Origin: a virus
IMG/VR virus record: IMGVR_UViG_3300022661_000003
Length of the DNA: 64,000 nucleotides
Direction: 5' to 3' (one strand)
Positions 17,029-64,000 of this stretch are shown in pieces. Every line of letters starts with the position of its first letter. Positions within the stretch are counted from its first letter, which is position 1. The position numbers were made by a program, and so were the translations under genes. The notes under the pieces were generated by a model. It saw only the letters and a list, made by a program, of their open reading frames with translations. It was not told the origin of the DNA and made no database searches.

Positions 17029-17037
17029 TACATAAAC

Positions 17038-17070
17038 AAAAGGGCAGATTTATTCTGCCCTTTATTTTTT
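17038..17070 (+). terminator. Rho-independent terminator
   Basis: GGGCAGATTTATTCTGCCC hairpin followed by a T-run. Confidence 0.7.
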
Positions 17071-17374: not shown

Positions 17375-17430
17375 TCTACTCGAACTTCTTTTGAAATTAT
17401 AAGACGACCACAGGAAGGAGTTTGTTGAGT

Positions 17431-17760
17431 ATGGCAAGCTTTTATGGAGGCGTTGGCATATCAGGTGGCTCCGGTGGAGGTTCCTCAGGAGTTGGAATCG
17501 CAACCATTGAATTTGATGAAAATCGCAACTTAATTATCTATCTTTCTGATGGAACCAAGAAAAATCTTGGTATTATTGATGGTGCGACTTATACACCAAA
17601 AGTGGTTGACGGAGTAATTTCCTGGACCAACGATTAGGATTTAGAGAATCCTGATTCATATGATATCACCGCAGGACTCGATGGAGGAGAATACTGGGAA
17701 GGTGTTACTTCTGAATCAGAACAACCCGCGGATGATAATCAATATTGGGAATCAATATAA
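17431..17760 (+). CDS. Small Gly-rich protein (~109 aa), one in-frame TAG
   Basis: GGAAGGAG RBS then ATG. Track ORF 17422..17637 continues through TAG to TAA at ~17758. Confidence 0.5.
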
Positions 17761-17783
17761 TTATTTGAAGGGGTGAAAAATAA

Positions 17784-42207: not shown

Positions 42208-42507
42208 ATGGCGTATAATTGGAATAATATGTTTGGAACTATAGTTGAAAAAGATTAGTCAATAAAGCATGAAAATAGTTTAAACCATATTATAGAAACA
42301 GCTACAGAGTATCTAGAATACCATTGTTCAGCTCATAATACAGAAAAATTTGCTTCTTGGGATGTAACTTATAATGGTACATTGAAGTCTAGTCATGATT
42401 CAACTTATAAAAGTTATAATTCTTATAATAGCGGCAAGTTAAGTACAAATTATTCTGGATATAATAGTAGTCATAGGTATTCTTATTTTGGAGGAAATGT
42501 AGGATAA
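42208..42507 (+). CDS. Precursor-like protein A2 (~99 aa), shortened paralogue of A1 with a Tyr/Ser/Asn-rich tail
   Basis: The N-terminus YNWNNMFG matches YNMWDEVFG in A1. The tail is SWDVTYNGTLKSSHDSTYKSYNSYNSGKLSTNYSGYNSSHRYSYFGG. The TAA overlaps the ATG of the next gene. Confidence 0.5.
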
Positions 42508-43883
42508 TGGATTACGAGAAAAAGGCGTTAGAACATTGTGTATCACTTTCATTGCATTGGTCTTCTGATTGTAATATGGCATGTTAGTATTGTTATATTG
42601 AAAAAGATAAAAAAGCAATGGCAACCTATAATAAAGCATTACGAGAAGCTTTAGAAAATGGTACATATGTTAATAATATAAAAAATAAATTTGAACATAT
42701 TAAAGATAATATTGAAAATTTAAGTTTGTGGGGTGCAGAACCTACAATTAATGGTATATATTTTAAAGATACTATTTATCAATGCTTAGATTTTTTTCCA
42801 AATGTACATTCTTTAATGTTTTCGACAAATGCATTGTTAGGTGCAGATATTATTTACGAACAATTTTATTTACCTTTATTAAGTTATGCAGAAACTAATT
42901 CACGTCCTCTTACTTTTGAATTACAGCTAAGTTTAGATGGTCCTCCTGAATTTAATGATAAATCACGTCATGAAGGAGCCACTAAAAATACTTTAAATAC
43001 TTTATATACTTTACTTGAAAGAACTCCATTTAATTGTAAATATTTTAAATTTAGCGTTTCTACTAAAGCCACTCTTGATATTAGTTATATGAGAGAAATG
43101 GTTGAAGGTGGAATAGAAAAATTTTAGTGGTATTATGATTTCATGAATGAAATTCATGGAAAAGCACATGATATTATTAAAAATAATTCTACAGTTAGTG
43201 ATTGTCATGTATTTGGAATACCTACATTAGTAGATCCAGGATATTATACAGTTGAAGATGGTAAAATATTTGCAAAATGGATATCAATGTTAAAATATGT
43301 AGACCGTAGTAAATGGCATGAGGCAAGTCAACATGTACCATTGTTTTATTAGTGTTTAAATACTGTTCTCGAAGCAGAAAACATACACAATCCTATTGCT
43401 TAGGGATATAATTATTTTTCTTGTTCTTCCGGAAAATATAATTATAGTGTTGATTATGATGGTACAATATATACTTGTAATCGTTTATGTCGAAATGCAG
43501 CTTTATCAGATAATTTAAAATATAAAGGATCTATGCTTTCTAACTCTAATGTGGATCATCCTGCTGGCTCAAAATGGTTAAAACGTAATTATGCTAATTG
43601 GGTTTTTCATGAAGATATTGTAGCTCGAAAAAATTTTTTAGATGCATTAATTTTTATGATGGCTAAAGCTGGCTAGATTGATAAATTATATATTGAAAAT
43701 GATGAAGCTCGATTAATAATGTTTTATATGATGAGCGGTATTTATTGTCATATAGGAGCAGAAGAAGATTATACAAGTAATCCTTTTATTCCTCCTGCTA
43801 GTTATTTGCGCTTATTGGGAAATGGAGCTCAATAGGAGTTGGAAAATTATTTTAAATTAGAAAGAGTAAGAGGAGTTTTGTAA
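42507..43883 (+). CDS. Radical SAM / SPASM-domain enzyme B1 (~459 aa, 5-6 in-frame TAG)
   Basis: N-terminal CNMAC(Q)YC matches the CxxxCxxC radical-SAM cluster motif. LWGAEPT is GGEP-like. C-terminal Cys cluster CSSGKYNYSVDYDGTIYTCNRLCRN is SPASM/twitch-like. Track ORFs 42618 and 43143 share frame 0. Confidence 0.6.
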
Positions 43884-45253
43884 TGGAAAATTGTATTATT
43901 AATACTACTGGTTTAGAAGCTTATCAATATGAAAATTAGAAATTGGCAGACAATTTTTTAGAAACATATTTTTTCTCTAATTTTAAATATAGTCATACAG
44001 CTTCTAAAAAATCTTTAGAGTTAATTATTTCTCCCAAATGTAATTTAGGATGTAAATATTGCTATATTCATAAACATAAAAAACATATTTTTAATGAAGA
44101 TATTTTTAATGAAGAATTAACATTAAAAAATTTAACTTTAATTTTAAAATGGCTTGAAAAAAATGAATTTAATCCAGATTTAGATATTTTTTCAGGAGAA
44201 TTATTTGCTTAGGAAATTGGTCTAAAAATTTTACAAGTAATTTATGATCATGAGTTACATTTGCCTGAACATTTAAGATGCAAAGTTATAACAATTCCTA
44301 CAAATTTTACTTTTTTAAATTCTGATACATTGACAGAAAAAATCACTAATTTTCAAAAATAGTTTGAACAAATTAATATCCATTTATTTTTAAGTGCGAG
44401 TTTTGATGGAGCTCATATGGAACAAAATCGTCCTTATACCAAGACATTAGATTTTGATATTAATACCTCTCGCGATGATGAATATTATAATAAAGTTTTT
44501 CAATATTGTAGTGAACATCAATATGGATTACATCCAATGATTTACAGTAAAAATATTGCTAAATGGAAAGAAAATTTCTTATGGTTCCAAGAAAAAATGG
44601 AACAATTTAATATTCCTTGGGAAAATTTATATTTACTTAATGTTCGCAATGAAGAATGGGACGATGTCAGTTTAAAAGAATATTATAATTTTATTTTGTT
44701 CTTATATGATTGGGTATACCAAAAAGTTGGATGTAACACAGAATATTTAGTAAATTTTATTCTAAAAGCACACGGTTTTAATATAATGGCTAGTCCTTTA
44801 ACTCGAGTAGGAAGAGGCTTAACTTGTGGTTTATAGAATACTTTATGCGTTCGACTTAGTGATTTAATGGTTTATCCTTGCCACAGGACAGGATATGAAC
44901 ATTATTATTGTGGATAGTTCATAGAAGATGAGGATAAAATTTTAACATATAAAAATAAAAATGCTGAATTGCTAATTACAGTATATTCTGTTAACAAAGA
45001 AGGAATGCCCATGTGCTCTCAATGTCCTATTAATAAATTATGTGTAGGACAATGTTTAGGAGCTTGTCATGAAAGTAATAACAATTTATTTGTACCAATT
45101 CCTTCCGTTTGTGCTACCGTATATACATTATTAGCAGCAACTATTGAAGGTCTAACTAAATATCAAGCTTATGATTTACTGTTATCTCAAGTTGATGCTT
45201 CAATAGCAAAGCAATTAGAGTTTGTGAAAAAGGAGTTAAATAATGTTAAATAA
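43883..45253 (+). CDS. Radical SAM / SPASM-domain enzyme B2 (~456 aa, ~6 in-frame TAG)
   Basis: SPKCNLGCKYCY matches the CxxxCxxC motif. The C-terminal CSQCPINKLCVGQCLGAC matches SPASM. Track ORFs 43943, 44417, 44969 are in frame 2. The start overlaps the B1 stop (TAATG). Confidence 0.6.
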
Positions 45254-47111: not shown

Positions 47112-48014
47112 ATGGTTACAATTAAATTGAATACTCAAGATAAAATGGTAACTATGTTACAATACACCTTCAATACTAAAGTAAGTGGAACCGCAGATGC
47201 AGAATTTGTATCTGCGGTTAAATCTTATCAAAAAACCAAGAAACTTACTGCTGATGGTATTGTTGGTAAAAATACATATAAGGCTCTTCTTGATGATTTC
47301 CCAACTCTTAAAAAGGGTAAGAATAAAAAAAGTAATTGGAATAGAGCTTGGCAGTCATTTCTTGGAGTAAAAATTGATGGTATCTTTGGTTCTGATACCA
47401 AGAAAGCCACTAAAGATTGGCAAAAGGCTAATGGTCTTACCGTTGATGGCGTTGTAGGAGATGCCACTCTTTCTAAGGCTTTTGGCATTACCGTTTCCGT
47501 TTCCGCGCCGAGCACCTCTAACGGCACTTCTGTTGTAAATAAACAGCCTGTAAATTATAAGCAGTATGATTCTCGCTGGGGTAAAATCGTTTACACCAAG
47601 AATAATACCTATGACAAGAAACAGACTATTAGTAATTCTGGATGCGGTCCTACCGCCGCGGCAAATATTGTTGCTACTTGGTGGGATAGTTCCGTTACTC
47701 CTGCTACTCTTGCCGCTTTATCTGTAAAGCATGGCTATCGCACTTCTAATAGTGGTACTGCTTGGGGATTCTTTAAATTTATTGCTGAAAAATATGGCGC
47801 CTCTAAATTCGTTCAGACTAGCTCATATGCTACTGCTGAAGCCGCAATTAAAGAAGGCGCTTATGTTGTATGTTCCGTTGGTCCTGGTGTTTGGACTAAA
47901 GGTGGTCACTTTATTACTTGGTGGAAAGTTGATAATACTTATGTATATATTAATGACCCAGCAAGTGCTAGCTCTTCTCGCGCTAAATCTAAGAAGAGTA
48001 ATCTAAAAAATTAG
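47112..48014 (+). CDS. Endolysin: tandem peptidoglycan-binding (PG_binding_1-like) repeats plus a C-terminal C39-like cysteine peptidase/amidase domain
   Basis: Intact 300-aa track ORF. Repeats TADGIVGKNTYKALL and IDGIFGSDTKKATKDWQKANGLTVDGVVGDATL. Catalytic-Cys motif NSGCGPTAAANIVATWW. GAGGAGG RBS. Confidence 0.75.
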   Translation: MVTIKLNTQDKMVTMLQYTFNTKVSGTADAEFVSAVKSYQKTKKLTADGIVGKNTYKALLDDFPTLKKGKNKKSNWNRAWQSFLGVKIDGIFGSDTKKATKDWQKANGLTVDGVVGDATLSKAFGITVSVSAPSTSNGTSVVNKQPVNYKQYDSRWGKIVYTKNNTYDKKQTISNSGCGPTAAANIVATWWDSSVTPATLAALSVKHGYRTSNSGTAWGFFKFIAEKYGASKFVQTSSYATAEAAIKEGAYVVCSVGPGVWTKGGHFITWWKVDNTYVYINDPASASSSRAKSKKSNLKN

Positions 48015-48056
48015 AAAAAACAATTCTTTATTTTTTATAAGTAAGGAGAGAGTCAA

Positions 48057-51839: not shown

Positions 51840-51885
51840 AAAATAAGGGGAGACCAGAATATTCTGGTCTCCCCATTTTTTTTAT
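51840..51885. terminator. Bidirectional rho-independent terminator between the convergent late (+) and replication (-) modules
   Basis: GGGGAGACCAGAATATTCTGGTCTCCCC perfect hairpin flanked by an A-run upstream and a T-run downstream. Confidence 0.8.
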
Positions 51886-52377
51886 TTATTCATGATGTTC
51901 TTCATGCTCAAGTTCAGCTTGAGTCTTAATAGGTAACTCACGAATCTTTACAATCCACGAGTCTACGTGCCCGTTACCGCCCAAATCTTTGTAAGTTACA
52001 AACCGTTCATTGTAATCGGCAAGTTGTTCAGGCGTTATATAATGTTGTTTTAGGTAATTTTTACCATCAACAATTAATTCTCGCAGATGACTTGATAAAA
52101 TAGCTTTGCGAATGCCGTGAGTATTTTCTTCAATTTTATTCAAAACGTTATCCTGTAAATAATCTATTTTCTTTTCAAGCTTGTCTTCTTTTGCTTGCAT
52201 ATTTTGGATAACTTTACTTTCTGCGAGGTGTGCATCCCACTCCTCTTGGTCTTGAACTTTTTTTCCTGATTTAAAAGTTTTTACAAGAGGGGTTACTAAT
52301 AGAGAAAAGGCTCCCGCGCAACAAAATGGGACAGCCCATTTTATTACATATTCTAAGATATTCAATTCCTCCATCAA
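51886..52377 (-). CDS. Membrane-anchored coiled-coil protein (163 aa)
   Basis: Intact track ORF. N-terminal TM segment WAVPFCCAGAFSLLV. Function unknown. Confidence 0.5.
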   Translation of the reverse strand: MMEELNILEYVIKWAVPFCCAGAFSLLVTPLVKTFKSGKKVQDQEEWDAHLAESKVIQNMQAKEDKLEKKIDYLQDNVLNKIEENTHGIRKAILSSHLRELIVDGKNYLKQHYITPEQLADYNERFVTYKDLGGNGHVDSWIVKIRELPIKTQAELEHEEHHE

Positions 52378-52440: not shown

Positions 52441-52974
52441 TTAATCCCATTCGATGGCATTATTTTGTTGAATTACCTCACTATATCCAATACAAATAGC
52501 ATCTGCTTCATCCTAAATACATTTAACGCCATAAGTATCAAGCACCCATTGCTAAGCAACTTTCTTTTGATTTTCTCTATGCTTGTCGTTGCCGGCGAGG
52601 AATTTACAATTTTTACGCCATTCACTTGGATATACTAATTTATATGGAACTTGCTTTTGAATACAAACTCTCATAATAGCACCTTGAACTTGTGCTAGTT
52701 TCTAAAAGGTTTGAACATTGCCTTCTCGGTTGCCGATTTGCTGTAGCTAAATATTTTCAATAAGGACGATGTCTGGCTCGTCATCATCTATTTTGTTCTC
52801 AATTTCCTAACAAAGGTTATTGATACGAATAGCTACGTCGTCAGCCGTGTGCGACCAATGCCCAAAAGATTTTAATTCTCCATTCTCAAAAAAAGACCAG
52901 CCACTCACACGAGTGGACTGGTCTAATGCTAAAATTTTATTTTTCTTATTCACTTGTCGAACCAAATCCGCCAT
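52441..52974 (-). CDS. ruvC: RuvC-like Holliday-junction resolvase (~175 aa) with 5 in-frame TAG
   Basis: Hand translation of the minus strand gives KILALDQSTRVSGWSFF... and a C-terminal (Q)DEADAICIGY motif. The TAG in that motif sits at a position where Gln is typical in RuvC (QADAADAL, recalled from memory). No TAG-free ORF exists here in the track. Confidence 0.6.
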
Positions 52975-53530
52975 CGCGTTCAGCAGTTACTTCTGCTTCA
53001 TCGGCGCAGACTCCATACGGAAGGAGGATACCCTGACCGAAACATTCGCCTCGTTGGATTTTGATTGGGAATGGAGCCAGATTAATAATCTGGAAATAAA
53101 TATGACCCTCATTATCGGGATTGTTATAATAATCAGCATCAATGATGCCTACGCCATTGCCAAGAATAAGCCAGTGCTTCAACGGCAATGAGCTACGGAC
53201 ACTTAACTGAAGATAATGTCCGTTGGGAATTTTGCACTTAATGCCAGTCGGCACAAGATTTACCTTACAATTACCATACTTAAAAACCGCAGCCGCATCA
53301 GCAAGAGAAAGCGGCAAGGCTTCATCATAAGCTTCAAGACTATCATAACAACGAGTAATTCCTCTTGCTACATTATCCTGCCATTCGTCCCCATTGTAAG
53401 GATAAATTACTACGTCTTCAGCGGCACAAAAGTCATAACCAGCAGATTCCTTAGTCTTACGAGTAGGAATTATAATAGTAGGATCTTCAGCATACTTGCT
53501 GATTTTCTCAAATTTAGCATTAATATTCAT
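52946..53530 (-). CDS. dut: dUTPase (194 aa), TAG-free
   Basis: Intact track ORF. Carries the SAGYDF and GVGIIDADY motifs of the dUTPase/dCTP deaminase family. Confidence 0.8.
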   Translation of the reverse strand: MNINAKFEKISKYAEDPTIIIPTRKTKESAGYDFCAAEDVVIYPYNGDEWQDNVARGITRCYDSLEAYDEALPLSLADAAAVFKYGNCKVNLVPTGIKCKIPNGHYLQLSVRSSLPLKHWLILGNGVGIIDADYYNNPDNEGHIYFQIINLAPFPIKIQRGECFGQGILLPYGVCADEAEVTAERDGGFGSTSE

Positions 53531-53750
53531 AAATCACTCTTACCTGACTAGTAGGTTCCTTCTCTTGATTTACAATTTTCTTTACCTTAACAACCTGATA
53601 TTCTTCTTCGGTTTTCTTGTTAAATTTAGTAGTATAAGAGAAACTCTGAAGCTCATATTCCATAGCCTCGTTCATTTCGTCTCGCATTGCGAGAGCTTCT
53701 TCAACAGTGTCTACACGATAAGTTTCTACAACATTCAAAAGACTCTTCAT
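53520..53750 (-). CDS. Small hypothetical protein (76 aa)
   Basis: Intact track ORF, translationally coupled (overlaps) with dut and the upstream gene. Confidence 0.45.
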   Translation of the reverse strand: MKSLLNVVETYRVDTVEEALAMRDEMNEAMEYELQSFSYTTKFNKKTEEEYQVVKVKKIVNQEKEPTSQVRVIYEY

Positions 53751-53753
53751 TCG

Positions 53754-53997
53754 GCAAGTTCCATCCTTACTTCAGTACTATAATGTAAATTAGAGGTTAG
53801 GTAATTATTAAGAATATCGGCTAAACCAATACCCATTTCAGTAGTTTTAATACAGGTAATATTGTGTGCCATTACAATAGTGGCGAGTTCTCTAATCTAT
53901 TCTTCGGCAGTTTCTCCTGTAAGAGTATAATAAGTCTCCTCTGGAATAAATACAGAAGAATGACGAGTAAACTAATTATTCATCCAAAATGCTGTCA
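53754..53997 (-). CDS. Small hypothetical protein (~81 aa, 2 TAG)
   Basis: ATGA overlap with the stop of the upstream gene. Minus-strand translation MTAFWMNN(Q)FTRHSS... Confidence 0.3.
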
Positions 53998-54498
53998 TCG
54001 CACCTCTACAACTCCTTCATCATATGGGAATAAGTAGAAGCAATGATAAACACCTTTGTCTTGCCAATTAGCCCAAATGGAGAAAGCACCATTAGTATCT
54101 TCTTCCATCATTTTTACTGGGCCAACACATTCAAATACGTCACACAAATCCCGCCAGAAGAATTCGTCATATTCAGAACCATCCCAGTCCAAATGGAATA
54201 AAGTATAATAATTATTCTGATTACAAAGTAACATAAAATAATTAGCATATCTATAACCATCGCCATCTTTTCCATTGAACCAATTCAAGAAATTTTCTTT
54301 CATTTGTTCTAGAGGCATATCGGGCATCTGCGCGACCATCATCTAATTAAGTTCATACAAAGATACTTCTACTTTTGGAGCTTCTTCACCTTCCGGCACT
54401 TCAAATGCTTTTTCCATGTTTCCTCGCTCTTTTAGTAGCTCCAGTAAATTTTCGTACTCTTCGGGCTCAACATAGTAAGCGCCATTTTCTTCTCTCAT
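53995..54498 (-). CDS. Hypothetical acidic protein (~167 aa, one TAG)
   Basis: Track ORF 53995..54342 is extended upstream through TAG to ATG ~54498, preceded by an AAAAAGGAG RBS. Confidence 0.45.
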
Positions 54499-54533
54499 AA
54501 AGAATACTCCTTTTTCTCATTTTCTACATTATA

Positions 54534-55022
54534 TCATAATTTTTTTTCTCTGTCAAATTTGTGGATGCGCTGATTAGAACTTCCACGAAGATATAATGTG
54601 ACATCTCTTAACTCTTCTTCATATCGACCATCAATAAGATAATCAATATTCTTCAAGATATAATCCATATGCGGATTACACATATCTTGTAATTCTTCTA
54701 AAGTATAACCACTCCAAATGTAAATTGGAGTATTTGGAGATTTTTCTGCTACTGTTTTTACCAAAAGAGTAGTAAGAAATAAATTCTCCTGACAAAGAGG
54801 TTCCCCGCCCAAGATACATAATGATCTATCAATATCTTGGGCGTGAAGCTTAACAATTAATTCATCTAGCAAAGTGGAGGGAAACTCCTTGCCTCCTTTA
54901 AAGTCCCAAGTTCCTGGATTATGACATCCAGGGCATCTATGAGGACATCCTTGTGTGTAGAATGATACGCATAAGCCATCACCGGCGGCAATATCATTCC
55001 ATAATACATCAGCATATCTCAT
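54534..55022 (-). CDS. nrdG: Anaerobic ribonucleotide reductase activating protein NrdG (radical SAM)
   Basis: Intact 162-aa ORF. Carries FYTQGCPHRCPGCHNP, the NrdG Cys cluster. Immediately downstream of nrdD. Confidence 0.85.
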   Translation of the reverse strand: MRYADVLWNDIAAGDGLCVSFYTQGCPHRCPGCHNPGTWDFKGGKEFPSTLLDELIVKLHAQDIDRSLCILGGEPLCQENLFLTTLLVKTVAEKSPNTPIYIWSGYTLEELQDMCNPHMDYILKNIDYLIDGRYEEELRDVTLYLRGSSNQRIHKFDREKKL

Positions 55023-55053
55023 GTTTCTTTCTCCTTTAAAGAAGGCTAATTTC

Positions 55054-57264
55054 TTAATAACGTGAATGCTTTACTCTTTCTCTTGTTTCTGCTCTCTTGC
55101 CTTCATTGAATTTACGGTAATCAGTAGTCAAATATCCAGTAACACGACGCAACTGTTCAATATTGGTACTGCCGCACTCAGGGCAAGCATTATTAAATTC
55201 TGCAGTATATCCACATTCTAAGCAAGTATCAATTGGGAAATTGAAAGCAAGATATGGGATATCAAGTGTATCAAAAGCATATTCAATAATCTGCTTAATT
55301 GCTTTTGTATTCTTTACAAAAGTAGAATCAAGTTCAACATATGTAATACATCCACCAGTGGGATATTTACAGAAAGGTGCTTCGATTTCGAGTTTCTCGA
55401 AGATGCCAACTTCTTCCCAAACAGGAACATGATGGCTATTAGTAAGATATTCTCTATCAGTAATATTCTTAATTACTCCATGCTGTTTTCTAAGGGCTTT
55501 TAGAGCAGTAGAGCATAAGCCTTCAGCAGGAGTCGCATAGCAAGAGAAGTTCAAATCATTTCTCTCACTTGCTTCTTTAGCGAACTCATTGATTCGCTGA
55601 ACGACAGAAAGAGCGAAAGCGTGTGCCTTCTTATTTCTGGCATGATTTTCACCAAATAGTGCCTGACACATTTCGGCAATACCGATGTAACCAATAGCCA
55701 GTGTATTATGTCTTAAAGATTGATATACACTATCTTTACACTTTTGGCCTTCTAGGATAGTGCCGTTTTGATACATAAAGGGCGCTGCGATTGCGGTTTG
55801 ATTTACCATTACGTCAAAACGTTCAAGAAGTGCCTGTTCGGCAAGCTTCAATAATTCTTCAAAGTCAGCCCAGAAACCTTCCAAATCAGCTTCGTCACGT
55901 TCACCAAGACAAATGCCGTGTTTAATGCCAAGCTGGGGAAGAATCATAGTGACAGGAACATTGTTTCCTCTGCCGACCCTCTTGTAACCGTAGCCGTGCC
56001 GATCAAATCCTAGCATTGTGCGGCATCCCATTGTGCTGAAATAAGTATCAGGGTCATTTTCATCTTCATGAGCTTGAGACCAATCGCAATTACAGAAATT
56101 AGGATAAATACGCTTGCTCAAAGATTCAACTGCCAATTCACTTAAATCATAATTGGGGTCATTTAGTTTTGCATTACATCCCTTTTTGTATTGGAAAATA
56201 CTGATTGGGAAGATAGAAGTTCTGTGGTGCTTACCGATTCCTGCGAGTGAAGCGTTGAGCATAGCTCGTGAAACCATTCTTCCTTCAGGGGAGGTATCTC
56301 GTCCGAAGTTAATAGAGGTAAACGGGACCTGAGACCCGGCACGGGATTCTAAAGTATTAAGATTGTGGTAAAGTGCTTCTGCACTTTGCTTCATCTCCTT
56401 CTCAAGCATATCCATAGCATAGCGATAAATATTGCGCTCGCCAAAATTATCTTTTGGATAATCTTCAATGGACATATCAGGAGCACCCTGGAATACATCT
56501 ACATCATCAGGGATAGAAACCTGACCGATATATTTCACGCCATCTTGCCAATGCTTGTAAAAACTCATTTTTACAAAAGGAGCAAGGTCATAGTCAATAT
56601 GAACGGTGCCAACGCCACCAAACTGAACCTAAGACTGACACTGGAAAATTACTGCCATTTGCTGACAAGCAGTAGAGAAACTCGTCGGTGGGCGAATGTC
56701 ACCATTACGAGTGGCAAAACCTTCTTCGAAGATTTTTCCAAAGTCAATATTCAAACAGTTATGTTCTCCAATAGGAGCTTTTTCAAGGTCATGCTGATAA
56801 ATCCACATATTACGATGCGCATCAGATACTTCTTTACTGAGAATATCTTCAAGAGCATAAACTTTTTGAATATCAGCAGATGCTTCTTTTTCACGACCAG
56901 AGAAACTACGTTCATCGACATTGGCATTAGCATTTTGAACTGAAACAGCGTTCAGCCTACGACGCATTGCTTCAATGATTTTACTTTTCTTTTCTCTTGC
57001 TTTAGTTCTCTAGTCTCTATATAAAATATACGCCTTAGCGACGTCAGGTTCGACTTTCATTAATTCTTTTTCTACAAGGTCTTGAATGCCTTCTACTGTC
57101 ATATCCTTGTCGAGAGCCTGAATTTTTAATGCAATATCGGCGGCGACAGGGTGAATACCACTGTCTTCAGTATAATTGCCCTGATAGAATGCTCTTGTAA
57201 TAGCAACTTCAATTTTGTTTAGGTCAAATGGGACTTTACGACCATCACGTTTAGTAACTTGCAT
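55054..57264 (-). CDS. nrdD: Anaerobic (class III) ribonucleotide reductase NrdD (~736 aa) with 2 in-frame TAG
   Basis: Track ORFs 55054..56568, 56629..56967 and 57010..57264 are all in the same frame, joined by TAG. N-terminal ATP-cone (MQVTKRDGRKVPFDLNKIEVAI). C-terminal glycyl-radical region and Cys-x2-Cys zinc ribbon (CLECGY...CPECGS). GGAGGT RBS. Confidence 0.85.
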
Positions 57265-57307
57265 GTATTTTACCTCCGATAATAAAAAGTGGATAATCCA
57301 TAATATT

Positions 57308-57958
57308 TCAATTTACTGGCTTATGTTCTATCGAAAGTCGCCCACGTGCTACTAGATGTTCGATATCATCCTCAATGGCCCACACAACATCTTGTTTATC
57401 GGATTCTTTTTCATTCCGATATTTACACATATTGCGATGTAAGATAAAGTCTCGGATTATCTCTTCATTAAAATCTTCTTCGTCGGCGAAATACCGACGG
57501 CAGATTTCAGATACATTAGGTTTATTTTCTCTATTAAGCTAACGAAGCATACGCTCTTTATCAGAACAGGCAATATAATAACCGTAAACAATAACATCTT
57601 CAAGAGGAGAACTAGTCAGACAATCAAATCCTTCTGGATTAAATACTCCAATATTGACACCCTCTTTAAGACTTGATTCCATTGTACCGTAATGCCATTC
57701 ATTGAAATAAGTTGCCTCAAGCATATCGCCATTTAAAACTTTTTCGGCAAACTATTCATTCGTTAAAAAGTAATAACTTTCACCTTCTACTTCATTATTT
57801 CGCATTGGGCGAGTGGTACAAGATACAATCATATTCCAATTTGGATTTCTGCGGGCAAGGTCGCGGGCAATTGTATCCTTACCCGCGCCAGCCTTTCCAA
57901 TTAACGCGATAATTACCTTCATATTATTCCTCACTAGCTTCTCCTTTAGCACGCTCAA
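57308..57958 (-). CDS. Deoxynucleoside-monophosphate kinase-like P-loop protein (~215 aa, 2 in-frame TAG)
   Basis: Track ORFs 57539..57724 and 57752..57958 share a frame and continue through TAGs to TGA ~57308. Walker A GKAGAGKDT. The real start is probably the internal ATG (MKVIIALIG...) immediately after the dnaE stop. Confidence 0.55.
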
Positions 57959-60900
57959 ACTGAAGATTCAATGTTCCTCTTGGGCCAACACCATTGATTT
58001 TATACAACTGATGACCTGCGGTTGAAGCGTACTTTTTCGGCACAAATTCATCTCCACGACGAATACCTGTTACCATAATCATACTACCTCTATTGAACCA
58101 AGATTTTTCAACTACGTGCTTAACTCCATCTTCTCCTCGTTCAGAAATCTGTTTATCAAACATACTGAAATATTCATTTCTAAACTTAACGGTTACTACA
58201 CCACTAGGAGTTAGAAGAGAAACTGTGCCTTTCGTTTTATTTTTAGCGATACAAGTTCCGCAAATACGATTAAGTCTATAAATCGGAATATCTACTCCGC
58301 CACGTCGGAATGTTTTTTCCACGATTGGCTCTTCAGGAAGCTCAAAGAAATCACTAATACCATACTTTTTAGTATCAATATCTTTCAATTCGTGTTCATG
58401 GCTATAGAAACACAATACTTCCATTTCCCAAGCGGAATAATTTGCATCGCCAGCATATTTTTTCCATTCTTCGGAGAAAATCATTTTATTCATGGCATAC
58501 AATGCTTCTTCTTGATTATCTTTCATCCAAGTTCGCACCGCATCCATTTCTTGCTTATAGACTTTCTCCCACATTTTCTTATTTAGAGCATAAGTGTTAT
58601 TATATACTTCCAAAGGAAGATTATAATGACTGTCAACAAATGCTAATGCTCTTTCATCGAGAATATAATAATCTCCATCAGATTTCAAAGCATTTTTCAG
58701 ATAACGAGTAAATTCATATACCGCTCTCTGATGACTCAAATGCTTCGGCAATAAATCTCTCTGAATAAGACCATTCATATTCTGAAGTGTGATACGTTGT
58801 TTCTTATCGCAAGTCATCCAAAGATATTCTGCCATAATATCTTTTCTCTCGCCAAATGAATCAAATGCTCCACCCTTGATAAGAGATACAACTGCTTGCT
58901 TGCCACATTTTACGCGTCCAAGAAAGTCTCCAAAACTGCTGAAGGGTCGAGACTCAATAATAGATTGTACCACATCGTCGCCGACGTTGAGTAGTCCTTT
59001 GAGTCCGAAAATAATCCGTCCGGTCGCCGCGTCGGGGCGGAAGCCAAAGCTAGATAGGTTGATATCTGCTGGAGTGACTTCGATTCCGGCAGATTTAATG
59101 TCTCCAATTGCTTTTGCAATTTTTCCATAATCAGTAGTTCCTTTCAATTCTGGGTCAACTGCGCCACTATTTACAATCAAACAGGCAGTATTCCAATAAA
59201 TTGGATTGAATTTAGATGCTAATAACAAAGTCTGCATTCCTACAAAAGAATATGGAAGTGAATGGTTCATACTAAAAGCATAGCCTAACTGCGGCGCCAC
59301 GGCGACCTTCCATACATAATCCGCACAAATGAATGGCATTGCTTCATATACTTTTCTCTTGAGTTCTGGAATACGAGACATCTGTTTTTTCGCAACAATC
59401 TTACGAGCATCATTTGCTTCTGCCAATGTAAAATGTGCGATACGTTCATCCATGAGAATTTCCATCATTTGCTCTTGAATTGCGCAACAACCATAATATG
59501 TATCACAATATTGATGCATTGCTTCAATCATCGGCTCAGGAAGTTTTGATTTTTCCATTTCTCTCTGGAAAGTCTCAAGACCATTCGTTTTAATTCTCAT
59601 ATATCTATCTTGCTGAGACTCTTGACCTCTCTCTGTCATAAGTCTCATCATAGCATTCGCCGCAGTCATTTCCAACGGATTACTCGGCTGAAGTCTTTTT
59701 GCTATCGCAAGACCAACACCACTATTGAACTGGAATACATCCAATACAGAACCTTCGGCAAGTTTCTGCCAAATTACTGGATCTTTTGTATCCATTATCT
59801 CAGGATGTAAATAAGTGTTATATGCTTGTCTTAAACTCATGGGTAAGATTACTTTATCTTCCATCATAAGATTCAGACAAATAATTTCCTTATCAGAAAT
59901 TTCAGTTACAAGGAAGTCATACTTCGTATCTCCAGCGGCTTCAGCCATATGAAGGTCATAACAAGTAATTAAATCTCCAGAAGGAGTTCTCATAATTGCC
60001 GCGGTATCAAAAATATTTTCATCATACATAATGACACCAGAAGCATGACATCCACGTTGTTTTACTACACCTTCAAGAGTAAAGATAATATCCAACAAAC
60101 CAGGATATTTATTTACTTCTCGAATGAATGCCGTTACAGGTCTTCGACCTTTCTCTTCACTACCATATACTACTTCATTCATAGACCACAAGAAACCACG
60201 TTCCTGAGGAATGAGAGAAGACATATACTGAGCAGCGTCAACATCAATACCGTCTTTATATTCTTCCTCTTCACCTGTTGGGCCTCTATATCCACGACAA
60301 GCTGTAAGAATAGCAGATTTTGTACCTTCAGTACCAAAAGTCGCAACCTGAATTAAACCAAGCTCTCCACGCTCTTCTCTAATCTTTTCAAAAATCAAAG
60401 GTCGCTTAGAAGGAGCCAAGTCAATATCAATATCAGGCAACTCAGCACGTTCTTTATTTAGAAAACGCCACCACGGCAAATTCCATTTTATAGGATCCAA
60501 CTGAGTAATACCAAGCAAATAATTGGAGAGGAAACCAGTAGCAGAACCGCGGCCAGGACCGACAATACTACCGCAATCCCAAAACAGATCAATATAATGC
60601 TTAAAGGTATTGAAATAAGCAAATAGACAAGTCCCAAGACGATCTCCAATATATCGGATAACGTCTGCTTCAATTTCAAGTCTTTCAATATATTCATCTT
60701 TGACTAATTTCTTATTAAACAGTTCTTTTAAACAACAATCTAACCAATATCGTTCTTGGTCAGTTCCTTGTTTATTAATGTAATCTAAAGTGGGATAATC
60801 TGTTTCAAAATCCCAACCTGTAATTGTAATCGTATGCTTTGGCACTTCAACAACTGGAATTTGTTGAGGTCTTTCTAAAGAATACCATTCAATTTTTTGA

Positions 60901-61775
60901 CGCATATCTTCAGATGCTCTTAAAACTGAATCAATATCTTTAGGCTCAAAAGAATAAGACAATAATTCTCTTACTTCATTTTCATCCATTAAACGAGCAA
61001 ATTCATAGAAGCTATCAATTTCTCGTTCTCCGCCTTTTGAGTTCAAATATGCTTTATGAGCAAAACGAGTTTCTTTACTCAAATAATGAGAGTCTGTGGC
61101 AGGCAAAATTTTGAGTTGAAAATGTATTGCTGTATCCATCAAATACTTATTGATTATAATTTGATCTTCAGTAGTTGATGGAGCACATTCAATATAAAAA
61201 TCATCTTGTCCAAATACTCCAACACAGAAATTGATAAAATTCCAAGCTTCTTGTAAATAAACTTGAGCTTCATCATAATTCTGAGATTCTTTCGCTACAT
61301 GATAAGCAGTTAACTTTTTAGAAAGTTCTCCACCCATACATGCTGTAGTTCCCATTACATGACCTTTATATTTACTCATAATATTCGCCAATTCTGTTTT
61401 TAGAAGTGGCACTCTTTCCATACCTCTATCAAAGTATGAATTATACCATGCAATAGAACTCAACTCACGAAGTGCTTTATGACCGATTGCATCTTTTGCA
61501 ACAAGAATAAAGTGATAATAAGGCTGACCCTTATCTCTGGTATCAGTTAAATAAATTTCATTCCCAAAAGCGATCGTAAAATCAGGATGCTTTTCACGAA
61601 TTTTCTTCGCATACATATTAATTTCCATATGACCGCTCAACGCTTCGTGGTCTGTAATAGCTACGCCAGAAAGACCTAGTTCAATCGCTTTATCAACTAG
61701 GTCTTTCGGTTTTATAATACAGTCGAGAAGTCGTAGATTGCTATAATGAGTGTGATTATGACAATTAAAAAACAT
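57924..61775 (-). CDS. dnaE: DNA polymerase III alpha subunit (DnaE-type, PHP domain N-terminus), 1283 aa, completely TAG-free
   Basis: Intact track ORF. The N-terminus HNHTHYSNLRLLDCIIKPKDLVDKAIELGLSGVAITDHEALSG is a PHP domain. Length and motifs are typical of PolIII alpha. Ends at TAA. Confidence 0.85.
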   Translation of the reverse strand: MFFNCHNHTHYSNLRLLDCIIKPKDLVDKAIELGLSGVAITDHEALSGHMEINMYAKKIREKHPDFTIAFGNEIYLTDTRDKGQPYYHFILVAKDAIGHKALRELSSIAWYNSYFDRGMERVPLLKTELANIMSKYKGHVMGTTACMGGELSKKLTAYHVAKESQNYDEAQVYLQEAWNFINFCVGVFGQDDFYIECAPSTTEDQIIINKYLMDTAIHFQLKILPATDSHYLSKETRFAHKAYLNSKGGEREIDSFYEFARLMDENEVRELLSYSFEPKDIDSVLRASEDMRQKIEWYSLERPQQIPVVEVPKHTITITGWDFETDYPTLDYINKQGTDQERYWLDCCLKELFNKKLVKDEYIERLEIEADVIRYIGDRLGTCLFAYFNTFKHYIDLFWDCGSIVGPGRGSATGFLSNYLLGITQLDPIKWNLPWWRFLNKERAELPDIDIDLAPSKRPLIFEKIREERGELGLIQVATFGTEGTKSAILTACRGYRGPTGEEEEYKDGIDVDAAQYMSSLIPQERGFLWSMNEVVYGSEEKGRRPVTAFIREVNKYPGLLDIIFTLEGVVKQRGCHASGVIMYDENIFDTAAIMRTPSGDLITCYDLHMAEAAGDTKYDFLVTEISDKEIICLNLMMEDKVILPMSLRQAYNTYLHPEIMDTKDPVIWQKLAEGSVLDVFQFNSGVGLAIAKRLQPSNPLEMTAANAMMRLMTERGQESQQDRYMRIKTNGLETFQREMEKSKLPEPMIEAMHQYCDTYYGCCAIQEQMMEILMDERIAHFTLAEANDARKIVAKKQMSRIPELKRKVYEAMPFICADYVWKVAVAPQLGYAFSMNHSLPYSFVGMQTLLLASKFNPIYWNTACLIVNSGAVDPELKGTTDYGKIAKAIGDIKSAGIEVTPADINLSSFGFRPDAATGRIIFGLKGLLNVGDDVVQSIIESRPFSSFGDFLGRVKCGKQAVVSLIKGGAFDSFGERKDIMAEYLWMTCDKKQRITLQNMNGLIQRDLLPKHLSHQRAVYEFTRYLKNALKSDGDYYILDERALAFVDSHYNLPLEVYNNTYALNKKMWEKVYKQEMDAVRTWMKDNQEEALYAMNKMIFSEEWKKYAGDANYSAWEMEVLCFYSHEHELKDIDTKKYGISDFFELPEEPIVEKTFRRGGVDIPIYRLNRICGTCIAKNKTKGTVSLLTPSGVVTVKFRNEYFSMFDKQISERGEDGVKHVVEKSWFNRGSMIMVTGIRRGDEFVPKKYASTAGHQLYKINGVGPRGTLNLQFERAKGEASEE

Positions 61776-61814
61776 CTACTCGTTCCTCTCTTTACATTTC
61801 CTGTATATATTATA

Positions 61815-62627
61815 TCATAAATTTTTAACTTTTTCAAGTTCAAGCGCCGTTTTTATAGCCAAACATTTTTCAATAAGGGCAGGCAATTTATCTAAAGGTA
61901 ATGCTTGCGCTTTATCACAGCAAGCTCCATATGGAGTATTTTGAGTTTCAATCATTAATCCATCTGCACCCACAGCAACGGCAGCCAAAGCAAGAGGTTC
62001 TACATGAGGAGTATAGCCGGCGGCATGTGATGGATCAACAATTACTGGAATCATATTTGCCTCTTGATGAATTTTAGGAATTGCCGCAAGATCAAGAGTA
62101 AATCGTGAAGAATCTGAGAAAGTACGAATACCACGCTCACAACCATATACCATTGCTTTTGGCATATAATTACGAGCAGCGATAAATTCTTCAACAGTAT
62201 TGCCAAATCCTCGTTTGAGAAGGATAAGATTATCACTTTCATTTAATGTGCGCAATAAGCTAAAATTTTGCATATTACGTGAACCAATTTGAAATATTAC
62301 TTCCACTTTTTCCTCTTCACAACGCTCTTTCACATAATGATATTGCTCTTCATCCATAACTTCTACGCAAATACCACTAATAATATTATCATCTGTAGAA
62401 CAGTTATTTACACAGTTTTGATATTCTCTTAACATTTTTTCAAAGCCTAATTTTCCTGCTCCTTGATAAGAGAATGTGCTTGTGCGAGGTTTCCAACAGC
62501 CGCCTCTTAACCAAAATTCTTCATGAGGAAATCGATTTGCAACTTTTTGGATTTCTTCAGTCACATATTTTATATCATTAAAACCTGGGTCTCGTGAAAT
62601 TGCACAAGGGCCAAGAATAAAAATCAT
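61815..62627 (-). CDS. DAHP synthase / KDO8P synthase family (class I-beta) aldolase, 270 aa, TAG-free
   Basis: Intact track ORF. Carries ILGPCAIS... and VIVDPSHAAG motifs of the KdsA/AroG-like family. Confidence 0.65.
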   Translation of the reverse strand: MIFILGPCAISRDPGFNDIKYVTEEIQKVANRFPHEEFWLRGGCWKPRTSTFSYQGAGKLGFEKMLREYQNCVNNCSTDDNIISGICVEVMDEEQYHYVKERCEEEKVEVIFQIGSRNMQNFSLLRTLNESDNLILLKRGFGNTVEEFIAARNYMPKAMVYGCERGIRTFSDSSRFTLDLAAIPKIHQEANMIPVIVDPSHAAGYTPHVEPLALAAVAVGADGLMIETQNTPYGACCDKAQALPLDKLPALIEKCLAIKTALELEKVKNL

Positions 62628-63262
62628 TGTAATGTTGCCTTTCCTGGATTTTCTACTAAAATGTTAAATAATGGACGATATTTTAATGGTACCCAATCAT
62701 AAGAAGAACAAATAAAAATTAAATCATAATGATCATTAGTGTTCAAATCTTTTAAATCAGTTAATGTAATATATTCATGATTCTTAGGAAGCTCATGATA
62801 TAACTACATTTCAGAATTTTTATTACGGACCCATATATATTTATTTACCTAATAGTATTTAGTTAAATAATAAAGCCAATTAGTACAGTCATAAGGTCGT
62901 TCTTTAAATTCTTCTATGTCATTGTGATGATATCCTCGATCATGATGATGATCAATATTTATAATCTCTAAAGAGCCACCAATTTCATGATGAACTTTTT
63001 TTATTGCTGGAACAATTTCATTATGATTTTGACCTATTAGTATATAAGATTTAGGATTATGCTTACAAACTTCCCTTAAGAAAAAATATAAATTAGCATA
63101 TTTTTCATAATCCATTTCAAGGTTACAATTATATTTTAATGCAGGAATTTCTGTTTCTATTATTTTCCAAGTCTCATCAGGTCCAGATTTACTTACGCGA
63201 CTATACTAATTATACGCCTAAATAAAAGGCTCCATAACCCAATCAAAATCTATACTTAATAC
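62624..63262 (-). CDS. Hypothetical protein (~212 aa, 4 TAG) with possible DHH-like phosphoesterase motifs (IDFD, DHHHD)
   Basis: Track ORF 62849..63115 is extended both ways through TAGs. ATGA overlaps occur at both ends (helicase stop, kdsA-like start). Confidence 0.4.
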
Positions 63263-63264
63263 TT

Positions 63265-64000
63265 TCATGGTCGATAATTCCTCACAATAATTAATTTCTT
63301 AGAGGCTCGTGTCGCAGCGGTATATAACCAACGCATATGGTCTTCCTTACTTTCGCCTCTTAAAAATTCTTCCAAGACAATAACTTTATCATACTCACTA
63401 CCTTGTGCTTTATGACAAGTAATAGCATATCCATAATCAAACTGTTTAGGATGATACCATTTAGGGATATTTTTAAAAGTCAATTTATTTACAGTTGCTT
63501 CATTTTCTGTAAAGATTTTATAATCTGCTTCTAATTCAGGGAATGCTCCAGCACCTTCAAAATCAGGTTGAAAAGTAATGATAGGAGTTTTTCTCATAAA
63601 TGGATTTTCATCGGTCCAGTCCAATTCAGTAATTGTTCCACTTAATCCATTTACTAAAGCATCATTAGTATCATTAATACATTCCCATTCGTTATGAAGG
63701 CAAATAACTCGATCGCCAACTACAGGTTCCATATCGTCAATTCCAAGTAAAGTTTGACGAAGATTGGCATTAATAGCACGACGAGTATTATTTTTTCCAA
63801 CCAAAATTTGATCGGCCCAAGCCAAAAAACCATCTTGAAATAATTCATCTCTATCGACAATCCGCACTTCATTACCAGAAAATTTTTCTAAAGCCTTTCC
63901 GGCACGAATATCCATAGTGAGACGAATAATTTCACTTTCTTCCTCTTGTCTCATAATTTCATCTAAGAAAATATGAGGTTTATCCAATACTTCATGTTGT
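63265..64000 (-). CDS. SF1 (Dda/RecD-like) helicase, 3' portion; gene continues beyond the window end
   Basis: The C-terminal YAITCHKAQGSEYDKVIVLEEF and TAATRASKKL motifs are helicase motifs V/VI. The ORF is open to the window edge. Confidence 0.7.
   Translation of the reverse strand, partial: QHEVLDKPHIFLDEIMRQEEESEIIRLTMDIRAGKALEKFSGNEVRIVDRDELFQDGFLAWADQILVGKNNTRRAINANLRQTLLGIDDMEPVVGDRVICLHNEWECINDTNDALVNGLSGTITELDWTDENPFMRKTPIITFQPDFEGAGAFPELEADYKIFTENEATVNKLTFKNIPKWYHPKQFDYGYAITCHKAQGSEYDKVIVLEEFLRGESKEDHMRWLYTAATRASKKLIIVRNYRP

Follow-up and report, generated by a model that had tools for sequence, protein, structure and literature searches.

What would a phage do with a PF00793-family enzyme encoded among its replication genes, and which enzyme is it? 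The first step in the synthesis of aromatic compounds is carried out by DAHP synthase, which condenses phosphoenolpyruvate (PEP) and erythrose-4-phosphate (E4P) to DAHP. A preliminary description of this DNA assigned a 270-aa protein to the class I-beta DAHP/KDO8P-synthase family and left two choices: DAHP synthase, or KdsA (Kdo-8-phosphate synthase), which makes an LPS precursor and would imply a Gram-negative host. We analyzed the window (the whole stretch of 64,000 nt), and especially positions 52441-64000, a block of DNA-replication and nucleotide-supply genes from a gut-type tailed phage of ~168.7 kb. We consider it somewhat likely (probability about 0.6) that the block is a TAG-decoding replication operon with a competent, unregulated type I-beta DAHP synthase that boosts chorismate- and prephenate-derived products.

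The replication and nucleotide-supply module as such is ordinary. Profile matches confirmed all the genes named in the preliminary description, at the same positions and on the minus strand (Table 1). A terminator-like hairpin separates this minus-strand block from the converging plus-strand virion and lysis genes, and the GC skew changes sign there. One flanking sequence, L018, shares 12,186 nt with the window at 100% identity; it was found on contigs of 168,658 bp. Together, the window and its flanks from the same genome (L018 and L102) made 82 kb visible; the remainder is ~87 kb.

The main peculiarity of the genome is that TAG is not a stop codon but encodes an amino acid, most likely Gln. 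Under this code, 96.7% of the window falls within 52 ORFs, every one of which stops at TAA or TGA. Six of the block's 13 genes (those for RuvC, the 83-aa and 167-aa ORFs, NrdD, the kinase and the 214-aa ORF) are interrupted unless TAG is read this way. TAG occurs 9.4 times per 1000 codons in the virion and lysis genes and 4.0 times in the replication block. The in-frame TAGs of NrdD are at 57010-57012 and 56629-56631; where the second lies, two homologues without TAG have Gln. The preliminary description mentioned neither this recoding nor the conserved 214-aa gene next to that of DAHP synthase.

Table 1. Features in and next to the block (window positions). RuvC scores were computed on a translation with TAG as Q; NrdD domain scores come from three in-frame pieces. 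L002 and L004 are related phages.
Feature	Position	Strand	In-frame TAG	Evidence
Bidirectional terminator-like hairpin	51847..51874	.		12-bp stem, 8 G-C pairs, T-runs on both strands
162-aa protein, last gene of minus-strand block	51886..52374	-	0	PHROG 4105 (function unknown) 1.1e-11
RuvC-like Holliday junction resolvase, 177 aa	52441..52974	-	5	PHROG 159 5.2e-18, PHROG 827 1.3e-17, Pfam RuvC 1.1e-5
dUTPase, 194 aa	52946..53530	-	0	PF00692 8.7e-17
76-aa conserved protein	53520..53750	-		62-76% identity in L002 and L004; no family match in Pfam/PHROG-type profile searches
83-aa ORF	53747..53998	-	2	Code-15 ORF, called as gene in L018; family match not found
167-aa conserved protein	53995..54498	-	1	34-40% identity in L002 and L004; no match to any family searched
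NrdG, radical-SAM activator of anaerobic RNR, 162 aa	54534..55022	-	0	Fer4_12 1.4e-37, Radical_SAM 1.4e-7
NrdD, class III ribonucleotide reductase, 736 aa	55054..57264	-	2	ATP-cone 3e-24; NRDD 9.1e-23 and 5.9e-122
Guanylate-kinase-like (d)NMP kinase, 204 aa	57308..57922	-	2	PF00625 1.1e-18, PHROG 1815 1.4e-32
DnaE / SPbeta-YorL-type DNA polymerase III alpha, 1283 aa	57924..61775	-	0	PHP, DNA_pol3_alpha, finger, HHH_6 domains; PHROG 405 1e-217
Type I-beta DAHP synthase, 270 aa, bare catalytic barrel	61815..62627	-	0	PF00793 (DAHP_synth_1) 1.4e-40
214-aa arginase/UPF0489-fold protein	62624..63268	-	4	Invariant NIDHHHD motif; co-occurs with DAHP synthase gene
RecD/PIF1-like SF1 helicase, C-terminal 240 aa, continues past window end	63265..64000	-	0 (visible part)	UvrD_C_2 1.2e-17

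For DnaE, NrdD and the SPbeta-type replisome genes, the closest relatives come from phages of Bacillota. Our reading is that the region forms the downstream half of a replication operon in a TAG-recoding tailed phage, with an SPbeta-type replisome (YorF, a YorG-like AAA_24 protein, YorH, DnaB, a 368-aa unannotated protein, a RecJ-like exonuclease and the YorL/DnaE polymerase) to which a RecD-like helicase, NrdD/NrdG, a guanylate-kinase-like kinase, dUTPase and RuvC are added. Bacillus phage SPbeta and phAss-1 (OQ749652; PMC10607447) have YorF, AAA_24, YorH, DnaB, RecJ-like and YorL-type DnaE genes in identical order, and phAss-1, a code-15 gut phage, also reads TAG as Gln and carries NrdD, NrdG and RuvC. 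In contrast, neither phage has nucleotide similarity to the window, and no phAss-1 or SPbeta-like record had a match to the window DAHP synthase. The 214-aa protein was not matched in the 22 kb examined around the phAss-1 DnaE, and for the gene upstream of that DnaE the sole resemblance to a helicase is a short match. In addition, phAss-1 carries suppressor tRNAs, whereas the visible 82 kb of the window phage yielded none.

DnaE is not truncated, a point the preliminary description had raised: it is 37-39% identical to YorL and the phAss-1 protein with 99% coverage, and its catalytic residues (D448, D450 and D620) and PHP ligands align with those of Taq Pol III alpha (2hpi). Full-length DnaE had also been called rare in phages. 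It is indeed uncommon, but it is well known (PHROG 405); 1,425 of 50,697 phage records matched, 117 of them over at least 80% of the length, and the matches include SPbeta YorL, Enterococcus phages and phAss-1. The adjacent reductase genes, with a CPHRCPGC cluster motif in NrdG and an RVTGY glycyl-radical motif and C-terminal Cys4 in NrdD (by direct reading), had been taken to mark a strict anaerobe. That was overstated: NrdD is present in 2,933 phage records, mostly from phages of facultative anaerobes (E. coli, Salmonella, Klebsiella, Vibrio). NrdD shows use of anaerobic conditions, not a strictly anaerobic host.

We found that the 270-aa protein is, as judged from sequence and modeled structure, a type I-beta DAHP synthase and not KdsA. 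Its PDB matches included DAHP synthases from P. furiosus (1zco, 5.5e-42) and T. maritima (3e-38), and KDO8P synthase scored about 30 orders of magnitude more weakly (6.6e-10). NCBIfam DAHP synthase models gave 215.5 and 193.2 bits, below their curated cut-offs of 335 and 267.75, and KDO8P_synth (TIGR01362) gave 51.7 bits, far below its cut-off of 314. An AF2 model (mean pLDDT 88.7) had a full barrel of eight beta/alpha units. In a Foldseek search of the PDB, the top 23 matches were all DAHP synthases (31-38% identity), followed by KDO8P synthases (24-25%). The two enzymes share the Pfam family, fold and metal-site architecture, and KDO8P synthases from Aquifex and Helicobacter superpose at TM 0.71-0.78, but the phage protein has KPRTS in place of the KANRS of KdsA. 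Together with these scores and identities, the Bacillota relatives of the replisome and NrdD effectively refute a KdsA that makes an LPS precursor. Because the gene encodes DAHP synthase and not KdsA, it gives no Gram-negative signal, and it does not constrain the host.

The active site is intact. We aligned the window protein with cellular enzymes and with 11 homologues from the phage clade, the most distant of which is 43% identical, and assigned roles of active-site residues from PMC6362186. The metal ligands C8, H201, E227 and D238 are invariant, as are R41, K46-P47-R48-T49, G115 and R117 of the G-S/A-R motif, K138 and R168. Thus the gene, for which decay had been considered, keeps all of its metal, PEP and E4P residues, and its product is predicted to be catalytically competent and metal-dependent. 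The protein is a bare (beta/alpha)8 barrel with no ferredoxin-like or chorismate-mutase regulatory domain, and the regulatory domain PF18152 was absent both from it and from the precomputed Pfam domains of close homologues. Barrel-only I-beta enzymes have been described as lacking feedback regulation (PMC6362186), and as a bare catalytic barrel the phage enzyme is therefore probably free of feedback control. It resembles the unregulated enzymes of P. furiosus (1ZCO), A. pernix (1VS1) and truncated T. maritima (3PG8, among the matches in both the PDB and Foldseek searches), with ~37% identity and TM 0.76-0.81. All have the barrel without a regulatory domain, the Cys/His/Glu/Asp metal site, and the KPRT(S), G-S/A-R-N, KRG and ERGIRT motifs. 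Unlike them, the phage protein is encoded in a phage replication operon, scores below the curated cut-offs, and has invariant C44-W45, S171-D172, S174 and C237 and a short insertion at about residues 66-84. In addition, the phage clade begins directly at beta-1 (MIxIxGPC), whereas the cellular sequences in the alignment all carry an N-terminal extension of ~20 residues. Given the missing extension and the low NCBIfam scores, activity or specificity may be altered.

DAHP synthases are already known as a kind of phage gene, and the window gene adds a member. It matched PHROG 5045 ('phospho-2-dehydro-3-deoxyheptonate aldolase', auxiliary metabolic gene category) at 4.1e-18, although the best-scoring stretch spans only residues 2-151. 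GenBank phage records with DAHP synthase are mostly short unannotated fragments that match the greater part of the protein at 34-37% identity (one fragment reaches 49% at 40% coverage), and none shares the gene context of the window gene. In related metagenomic phages of 110-190 kb, the gene lies between those for helicase and DnaE. The order helicase-(214 aa)-DAHP synthase-DnaE-kinase-NrdD-NrdG...dUTPase-RuvC recurs in L002, L004, L006, L009 and L021, in which DnaE is 67-75% identical to that of the window and DAHP synthase only 44-49%. The catalytic metal, PEP and E4P residues are kept in phage homologues that are only 43-50% identical.

In the reading we favor, DAHP synthase would be made together with the replication proteins, and would need no suppression because its gene has no TAG codons. 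From its operon position and lack of TAG codons only, we infer that it is expressed early. The condensation of PEP and E4P by the phage enzyme would open the host shikimate pathway at its entry step, which is under feedback control, and infected cells would have more chorismate- and prephenate-derived products, some of which the phage would presumably need. On its own, DAHP synthase is useful only in a host that provides the six remaining enzymes of the shikimate pathway; no other aromatic-pathway genes were found in the visible 82 kb. A plain role in amino-acid supply does not explain why the gene is inside a replication operon.

Several other explanations were considered. The protein could be a decaying or non-catalytic passenger, either a piece of captured host sequence or a subunit with a structural role, as its missing N-terminus and scores below family thresholds might indicate. 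This is very improbable: the ORF is intact, the start position is kept in 12 homologues, the catalytic residues are all invariant at 43-86% overall identity, gene position is kept across several diverged phage genomes, and the exact protein is on at least 24 contigs, mostly 50-200 kb (41 index blocks). It is also unlikely, to a lesser degree, that the enzyme is a PEP-aldolase derived from DAHP synthase that uses a different aldose and acts with the 214-aa protein in a short phage-specific pathway to a sugar acid or derivative. The window, L002, L009 and L021 all have the two genes side by side, in one order or the other, and the low NCBIfam scores and the clade-only invariant residues, absent from cellular enzymes, would fit a changed substrate. 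However, every residue to which E4P or PEP binding has been assigned in characterized DAHP synthases is unchanged, and L004 and L006 keep DAHP synthase without the partner gene. We know of no chemistry that joins a ureohydrolase-fold enzyme to DAHP.

A doubtful but slightly better candidate is that DAHP synthase supplies prephenate for DNA modification, from DAHP through chorismate to prephenate. CmoA takes prephenate as co-substrate to form carboxy-SAM, from which CmoX, a C5-methyltransferase homologue, produces 5-carboxymethylcytosine in phage DNA. The phage CmoA/CmoX system and its need for prephenate have been published (Synechococcus phage S-B43; PMC12783734); its authors list the availability of prephenate as unresolved and mention neither DAHP nor chorismate. 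Three unrelated phage contigs from IMG/VR place a DAHP synthase homologue next to CmoA (TIGR00740, 5.5e-37 to 7.2e-47) and a C5-methyltransferase of the dcm type. L015 has CmoA, methyltransferase and DAHP synthase. L016 has a methyltransferase with an SPPC motif, CmoA, and DAHP synthase inside a 488-aa ORF whose upstream part is chorismate-mutase-like by eye but matched no chorismate-mutase profile. In L014, CmoA, DAHP synthase and chorismate mutase follow a stretch that resembles the L016 methyltransferase. These arrangements, two with chorismate mutase (that of L016 by eye only), suggest prephenate supply, and a role in making DNA precursors would fit a location in the replication operon. 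In contrast, tblastn with CmoA, methyltransferase and chorismate-mutase queries found nothing in the window or its flanks (82 kb of ~168.7 kb), or within 8-10 kb of DAHP synthase in relatives L002-L010 and L021. CmoA of the host might stand in, but only in a host that has the enzyme.

The dUTPase is 55-58% identical to its counterparts in L002 and L004. The full helicase gene was called as 314 aa in L018 and 365 aa in L019, with AAA_30, AAA_19 and UvrD_C_2 domains.

Although divergent and N-terminally shorter than cellular enzymes, the 270-aa protein is predicted by every discriminating test to be a type I-beta DAHPS. The match to the PF00793 barrel (1.4e-40) covers residues 1-251, and the AF2 model (pLDDT 88.7) contains eight beta/alpha units, with a TM score of 0.78 to 1zco. 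The best matches in the PDB were the DAHPS enzymes of P. furiosus (5.5e-42), A. pernix (3.9e-40) and T. maritima (3e-38), compared to 6.6e-10 for the best KDO8PS. When the AF2 model was used in Foldseek, 23 DAHPS chains ranked first (31-38% identity), followed by KDO8PS chains (24-25%) with an equal TM score. That is, the fold alone has no power to separate DAHPS from KDO8PS; sequence does. The NCBIfam models for DAHPS scored below their curated cut-offs (NF006421, 215.5 bits vs 335; TIGR01361, 193.2 vs 267.75), as did the KDO8PS model TIGR01362 (51.7 bits vs 314), and DAHPS models scored ~4-fold above KDO8PS models. The protein contains the motif WLRGGCWKPRTS, which is of the LRGGxxKPRT type found in DAHPS. 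KDO8PS carries KANRS in place of the KPRT-type motif. We rejected the reading of this gene as KdsA based on the profile scores, the PDB E-values, the KPRT motif, and the 24-25% identity to KDO8PS. The preliminary description had kept KdsA as an alternative, in which case the host would be Gram-negative and make LPS. With the gene settled as type I-beta DAHPS, this alternative falls, and a false cue to a Gram-negative host is removed. Among the Pfam-labelled genes of L018 (a locus of the same genome that extends beyond the window), none was labelled KdsB, KdsC or KdsD.

We aligned the protein with six cellular enzymes, 11 homologues from the phage clade (the most distant 43% identical), and one short homologue from a metagenome. 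The metal ligands C8, H201, E227 and D238 (C36, H206, E232 and D243 in Aro1A; PMC6362186) were invariant. So were the PEP residues R41, K46, G115, R117, K138 and R168 and the E4P residues R48 and T49 (roles from PMC6362186), along with P47. Within the G-S/A-R motif, the central position held Ser (S116 in the window protein) or Ala. The LRGGxxKPRT motif is known to bind PEP and E4P in DAHPS (PMC6362186). A KdsA-like ORF that had lost its catalytic residues would be a decayed gene, a concern raised before this analysis; because the metal, PEP, and E4P residues are all kept, we ruled this out.

Proteins of the phage clade are short (232-270 aa) and all start at beta-1 (MIxIxGPC). Most bacterial I-beta enzymes have a ferredoxin-like (PF18152) or chorismate-mutase regulatory domain; the phage proteins have neither, and, in contrast to minimal archaeal-type enzymes, they are without the ~20-residue N-terminal extension. 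Barrel-only I-beta enzymes have been described as not feedback-regulated (PMC6362186). Residues C44-W45, S171-D172, S174 and C237 are invariant and specific to the clade. We ruled out a longer N-terminus: there is no in-frame upstream ATG, even with TAG read as sense, and the start is common to 12 homologues. The 180-aa version in L021, a locus from a related metagenomic phage, is a start-codon miscall, since the full ORF starts with GTG.

The clade was found only in metagenome sources, with no NCBI or UniRef accession; JGI labels some members 3-deoxy-7-phosphoheptulonate synthase. The best match among 185,579 species genomes was at most 48% identical, and matches were spread over many phyla. 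These matches are uninformative as to a cellular donor or host. A megablast search of the phage collection found no GenBank phage with this module, and the tblastn matches to DAHPS in GenBank phages were short unannotated fragments that are probably host DNA. Our literature search found no paper on a phage-encoded DAHPS. The protein adds a new member to the type I-beta kind described as unregulated, and its home in a replication operon is unusual and unexplained.

The module around DAHPS is otherwise an ordinary replication and nucleotide block of the SPbeta/phAss type in a TAG-recoded phage. Plus-strand genes end at 51,836 and minus-strand genes run from 51,886 to the end of the window, parted by a strong two-way terminator-like hairpin (51,847-51,874); the GC skew flips sign at ~52,000. 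We annotated the block on translations in which TAG was read as Q. Every gene named in the preliminary description was found at its place by Pfam, PHROG, and ORF calling. The ribonucleotide reductase is of class III: NrdD has ATP-cone and NRDD domains (Pfam) and the radical-SAM activase NrdG is alongside. The TAG-to-Q translation of NrdD contains RRVTGY (glycyl-radical) and CLECG...CPECG (C-terminal Cys4), and CPHRCPGC is present in NrdG.

Features of the replication block (window coordinates) and of three unrelated IMG/VR phage contigs with a DAHPS homologue (L014, L015, L016)
Feature	Position	Strand	Evidence or remark
RuvC-like resolvase	52441-52974	-	PHROG 159/827, about 1e-18
dUTPase	52946-53530	-	PF00692
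Three small unknown ORFs	53520-54498	-	no family match
NrdG	54534-55022	-	Fer4_12
NrdD, 736 aa	55054-57264	-	ATP-cone + NRDD
Guanylate-kinase-like kinase	57308-57922	-	PHROG 1815, 1.4e-32
DnaE-type polymerase, 1283 aa	57924-61775	-	four Pfam domains
PF00793 protein (DAHPS), 270 aa	61815-62627	-	1.4e-40
214-aa ORF, absent from the preliminary description	62624-63268	-	overlaps DAHPS start by 4 nt
SF1 helicase C-terminus	63265-64000	-	UvrD_C_2
Stretch similar to L016 methyltransferase, CmoA, DAHPS, chorismate mutase	L014:5400-9000		GC 0.66
CmoA, methyltransferase, DAHPS	L015:6062-8612		GC 0.26
Methyltransferase (SPPC motif), CmoA, DAHPS in 488-aa ORF	L016:6057-8699		GC 0.66

Two near-perfect matches to a sigma-70-type promoter, both with an extended -10 TG, are on the minus strand at 54528-54556 (12/12) and 61809-61837 (11/12). 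The first is just upstream of a 167-aa ORF and overlaps the nrdG 3' end; the second is just upstream of dnaE and overlaps that of the DAHPS gene. The total from the promoter scan was not above chance (54 vs 45.9 +/- 7.2 in shuffled sequence); only these two near-consensus sites stand out.

The block encodes a full-length DnaE-type polymerase, with the complete domain set (PHP, palm/NTPase, fingers, and HhH; Pfam), 99% coverage against YorL (SPBc2) and its counterparts in Enterococcus phages and phAss-1, and a match to PHROG 405 over residues 1-1259 (1e-217). The motifs PDIDTD and KMDFL of Taq Pol III alpha (2hpi), which hold the catalytic aspartate triad, line up with PDIDID (D448, D450) and KYDFL (D620) of the phage protein. 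A truncated dnaE is ruled out by the domain set, the coverage, and the catalytic motifs; the intactness of the active site had been raised as a point to check. All 9 ligand positions of the Taq PHP domain are occupied (H6, H8, D18, H43, E73, H88, C146, D228 and H230), a set that would be compatible with built-in proofreading. The gene is not the rarity among phages that it was said to be: a DnaE-type polymerase was found in 1,425 of 50,697 phage records, 117 of which match over at least 80% of its length.

We found the same arrangement in five loci of related metagenomic phages (L002, L004, L006, L009, and L021). In each, DAHPS is between a RecD-like helicase and DnaE, with the kinase, NrdD, NrdG, dUTPase, and RuvC downstream. 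Across the context loci, which were from contigs of about 21, 113, 128, 169, 173 and 189 kb, DnaE was 67-75% identical and DAHPS 44-49%. These loci show that a barrel-only DAHPS is a long-standing, conserved and selected part of the replication operon across a widespread phage clade with genomes of roughly 110-190 kb, which is partly TAG-recoded and absent from GenBank phage collections. Shikimate-pathway genes are unusual cargo for phages. In L002, L009 and L021 the 214-aa ORF is found with DAHPS, and the two may come in either order; it is missing from L004 and L006. Two insertions in relatives resemble mobile elements. In L006, a 334-aa ORF (8771-9775) with a DGKQRL motif (DUF262-like by eye only) is between DAHPS and DnaE, and in L002 a GIY-YIG endonuclease gene interrupts NrdD (15290-18432). 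The NrdD of a Thomasclavelia phage harbours an HNH endonuclease.

Made alongside the replisome, DAHPS would channel PEP and E4P into the shikimate pathway whatever the feedback control of the host, and the outcome would be more chorismate- and prephenate-derived products. The relevant product may be an aromatic amino acid, folate made via pABA, or another compound. A lead comes from L014, L015, and L016, in which DAHPS directly adjoins a CmoA homologue (TIGR00740, 5.5e-37 to 7.2e-47) and a dcm-type C5-methyltransferase. The upstream part of the 488-aa ORF in L016 resembles chorismate mutase by eye only, with no match to a chorismate-mutase profile. CmoA converts SAM and prephenate to carboxy-SAM, which CmoX uses to make 5-carboxymethylcytosine in phage DNA (PMC12783734). 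That work leaves the availability of prephenate open, and the DAHPS-CmoA-methyltransferase arrangement is unmentioned there. Most plausibly, DAHPS in these three phages secures prephenate for 5-carboxymethylcytosine. This side observation may outweigh our main finding, as it offers a testable answer to the prephenate question.

It is quite improbable that DAHPS in the present phage also supplies prephenate to DNA modification by the CmoA/CmoX route. Searches for CmoA, C5-methyltransferase, and chorismate mutase found none of them in the window, in the 17.8 kb of added flanks (L018 and L102, another locus of this genome), or near the DAHPS of its relatives; we keep the explanation at this low level because the search covered 82 kb of ~169 kb. 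The broader proposal that DAHPS serves DNA-precursor chemistry rather than amino-acid supply, either through prephenate for a carboxy-SAM-dependent cytosine modification whose genes lie elsewhere in the genome or in a new two-enzyme pathway with its 214-aa neighbour of arginase/UPF0489 fold, seems unlikely. On a more general version of this reading, phages with 5-carboxymethylcytosine would bring along genes for shikimate entry and chorismate mutase to secure prephenate.

TAG recoding, on which the preliminary description was silent, was found across the window. Standard-code ORF calling fragments several minus-strand genes. NrdD becomes three in-frame pieces (ATP-cone, NRDD N-terminus, and NRDD C-terminus) that are parted only by the TAG codons at 57,010-57,012 and 56,629-56,631. 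With TAG as sense, the window resolves into 52 tightly packed ORFs that take up 96.7% of its length; 172 TAGs are in frame within them, and all terminate in TAA or TGA, none in TAG. We examined two TAG codons of NrdD in all. Opposite codon 212, the TAG-free homologues in L006 and L009 have Q, and L004 has L; codon 85 is at a variable position (E, R or K in homologues). Based on the ORF packing, the TAA/TGA ends, and the one NrdD TAG opposite Gln, we take this to be a code-15-type recoded phage.

The density of TAG was 9.4 per 1000 codons in the virion/lysis genes vs 4.0 in the replication block, and no TAG occurs in DAHPS, DnaE, NrdG, dUTPase, or what is visible of the helicase. Recoding has been proposed to affect mainly late genes (PMC10607447), and the low density in the replication block fits this idea. 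The ORF at 48-6026 of the window (1,992 aa) has 34 TAGs. Giant ORFs of the virion block include L102:103-9018 (2,971 aa, 62 TAGs) and 22408-29403 of the window (2,331 aa, 11 TAGs). The window, L018 and L102 (82 kb of ~169 kb) contained no tRNA gene, hence no suppressor tRNA(CUA) either, and tRNAs gave no cue to the host there. In contrast, phAss-1 has 36 tRNAs and three suppressor tRNAs. A suppressor tRNA is absent from some recoded phages (PMC10607447).

The exact 270-aa protein recurs in 41 index blocks (24 contigs read), mostly on ~168.6-kb contigs. The complete genome is represented by ENA ERZ27248314 contig k141_3767000 (168,658 bp) and by IMG 3300019378 Ga0187901_10000038, in the latter of which the window is at about 69,998-133,997. 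L018 is identical to the window across 12,186 nt, and the view beyond the window extends 9.2 kb to the left, with the single 2,971-aa, 62-TAG protein, and 8.6 kb to the right. Upstream of the helicase, L018 encodes YorF, an AAA_24 protein, YorH, DnaB, a 368-aa unannotated protein, and a RecJ-like exonuclease. This is the replisome order of Bacillus phage SPbeta, down to the YorL-type polymerase.

At the nucleotide level, the phage collection yielded no relative. Among deposited sequences, DnaE was nearest to those of phAss-1, Enterococcus phages, and SPbeta-like phages (all 37-39% identity over 99% of the length), and NrdD was closest to that of Thomasclavelia phages (47%) and then phAss-1 (46%). 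phAss-1 belongs to the 'Caudoviricetes code 15 clade', with Clostridia as predicted host (PMC10607447). Judging only by these relatives, the host is probably an anaerobe belonging to the Bacillota. The earlier claim that NrdD/NrdG marks a strict anaerobe does not stand.

Several other genes were seen in the virion and lysis part of the window. The endolysin (47112-48044) combines two PG_binding_1 repeats with a C39-like cysteine peptidase domain. Among deposited sequences, its closest relatives come from gut-metagenome phages and one rodent-gut phage, in which this domain neighbours an r1t-type holin; they are too distant to be decisive about the host. A GT2 glycosyltransferase (39555-40604; 6.7e-19) and two weak radical-SAM-like proteins of ~457 aa (42507-43883 and 43883-45253) are within the virion/lysis block and are possibly a protein- or glycan-modifying set. 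An 833-aa protein of BspA-type leucine-rich repeats (37027-39528; LRR_5, 2.4e-16) is probably a host-recognition or adhesion protein.
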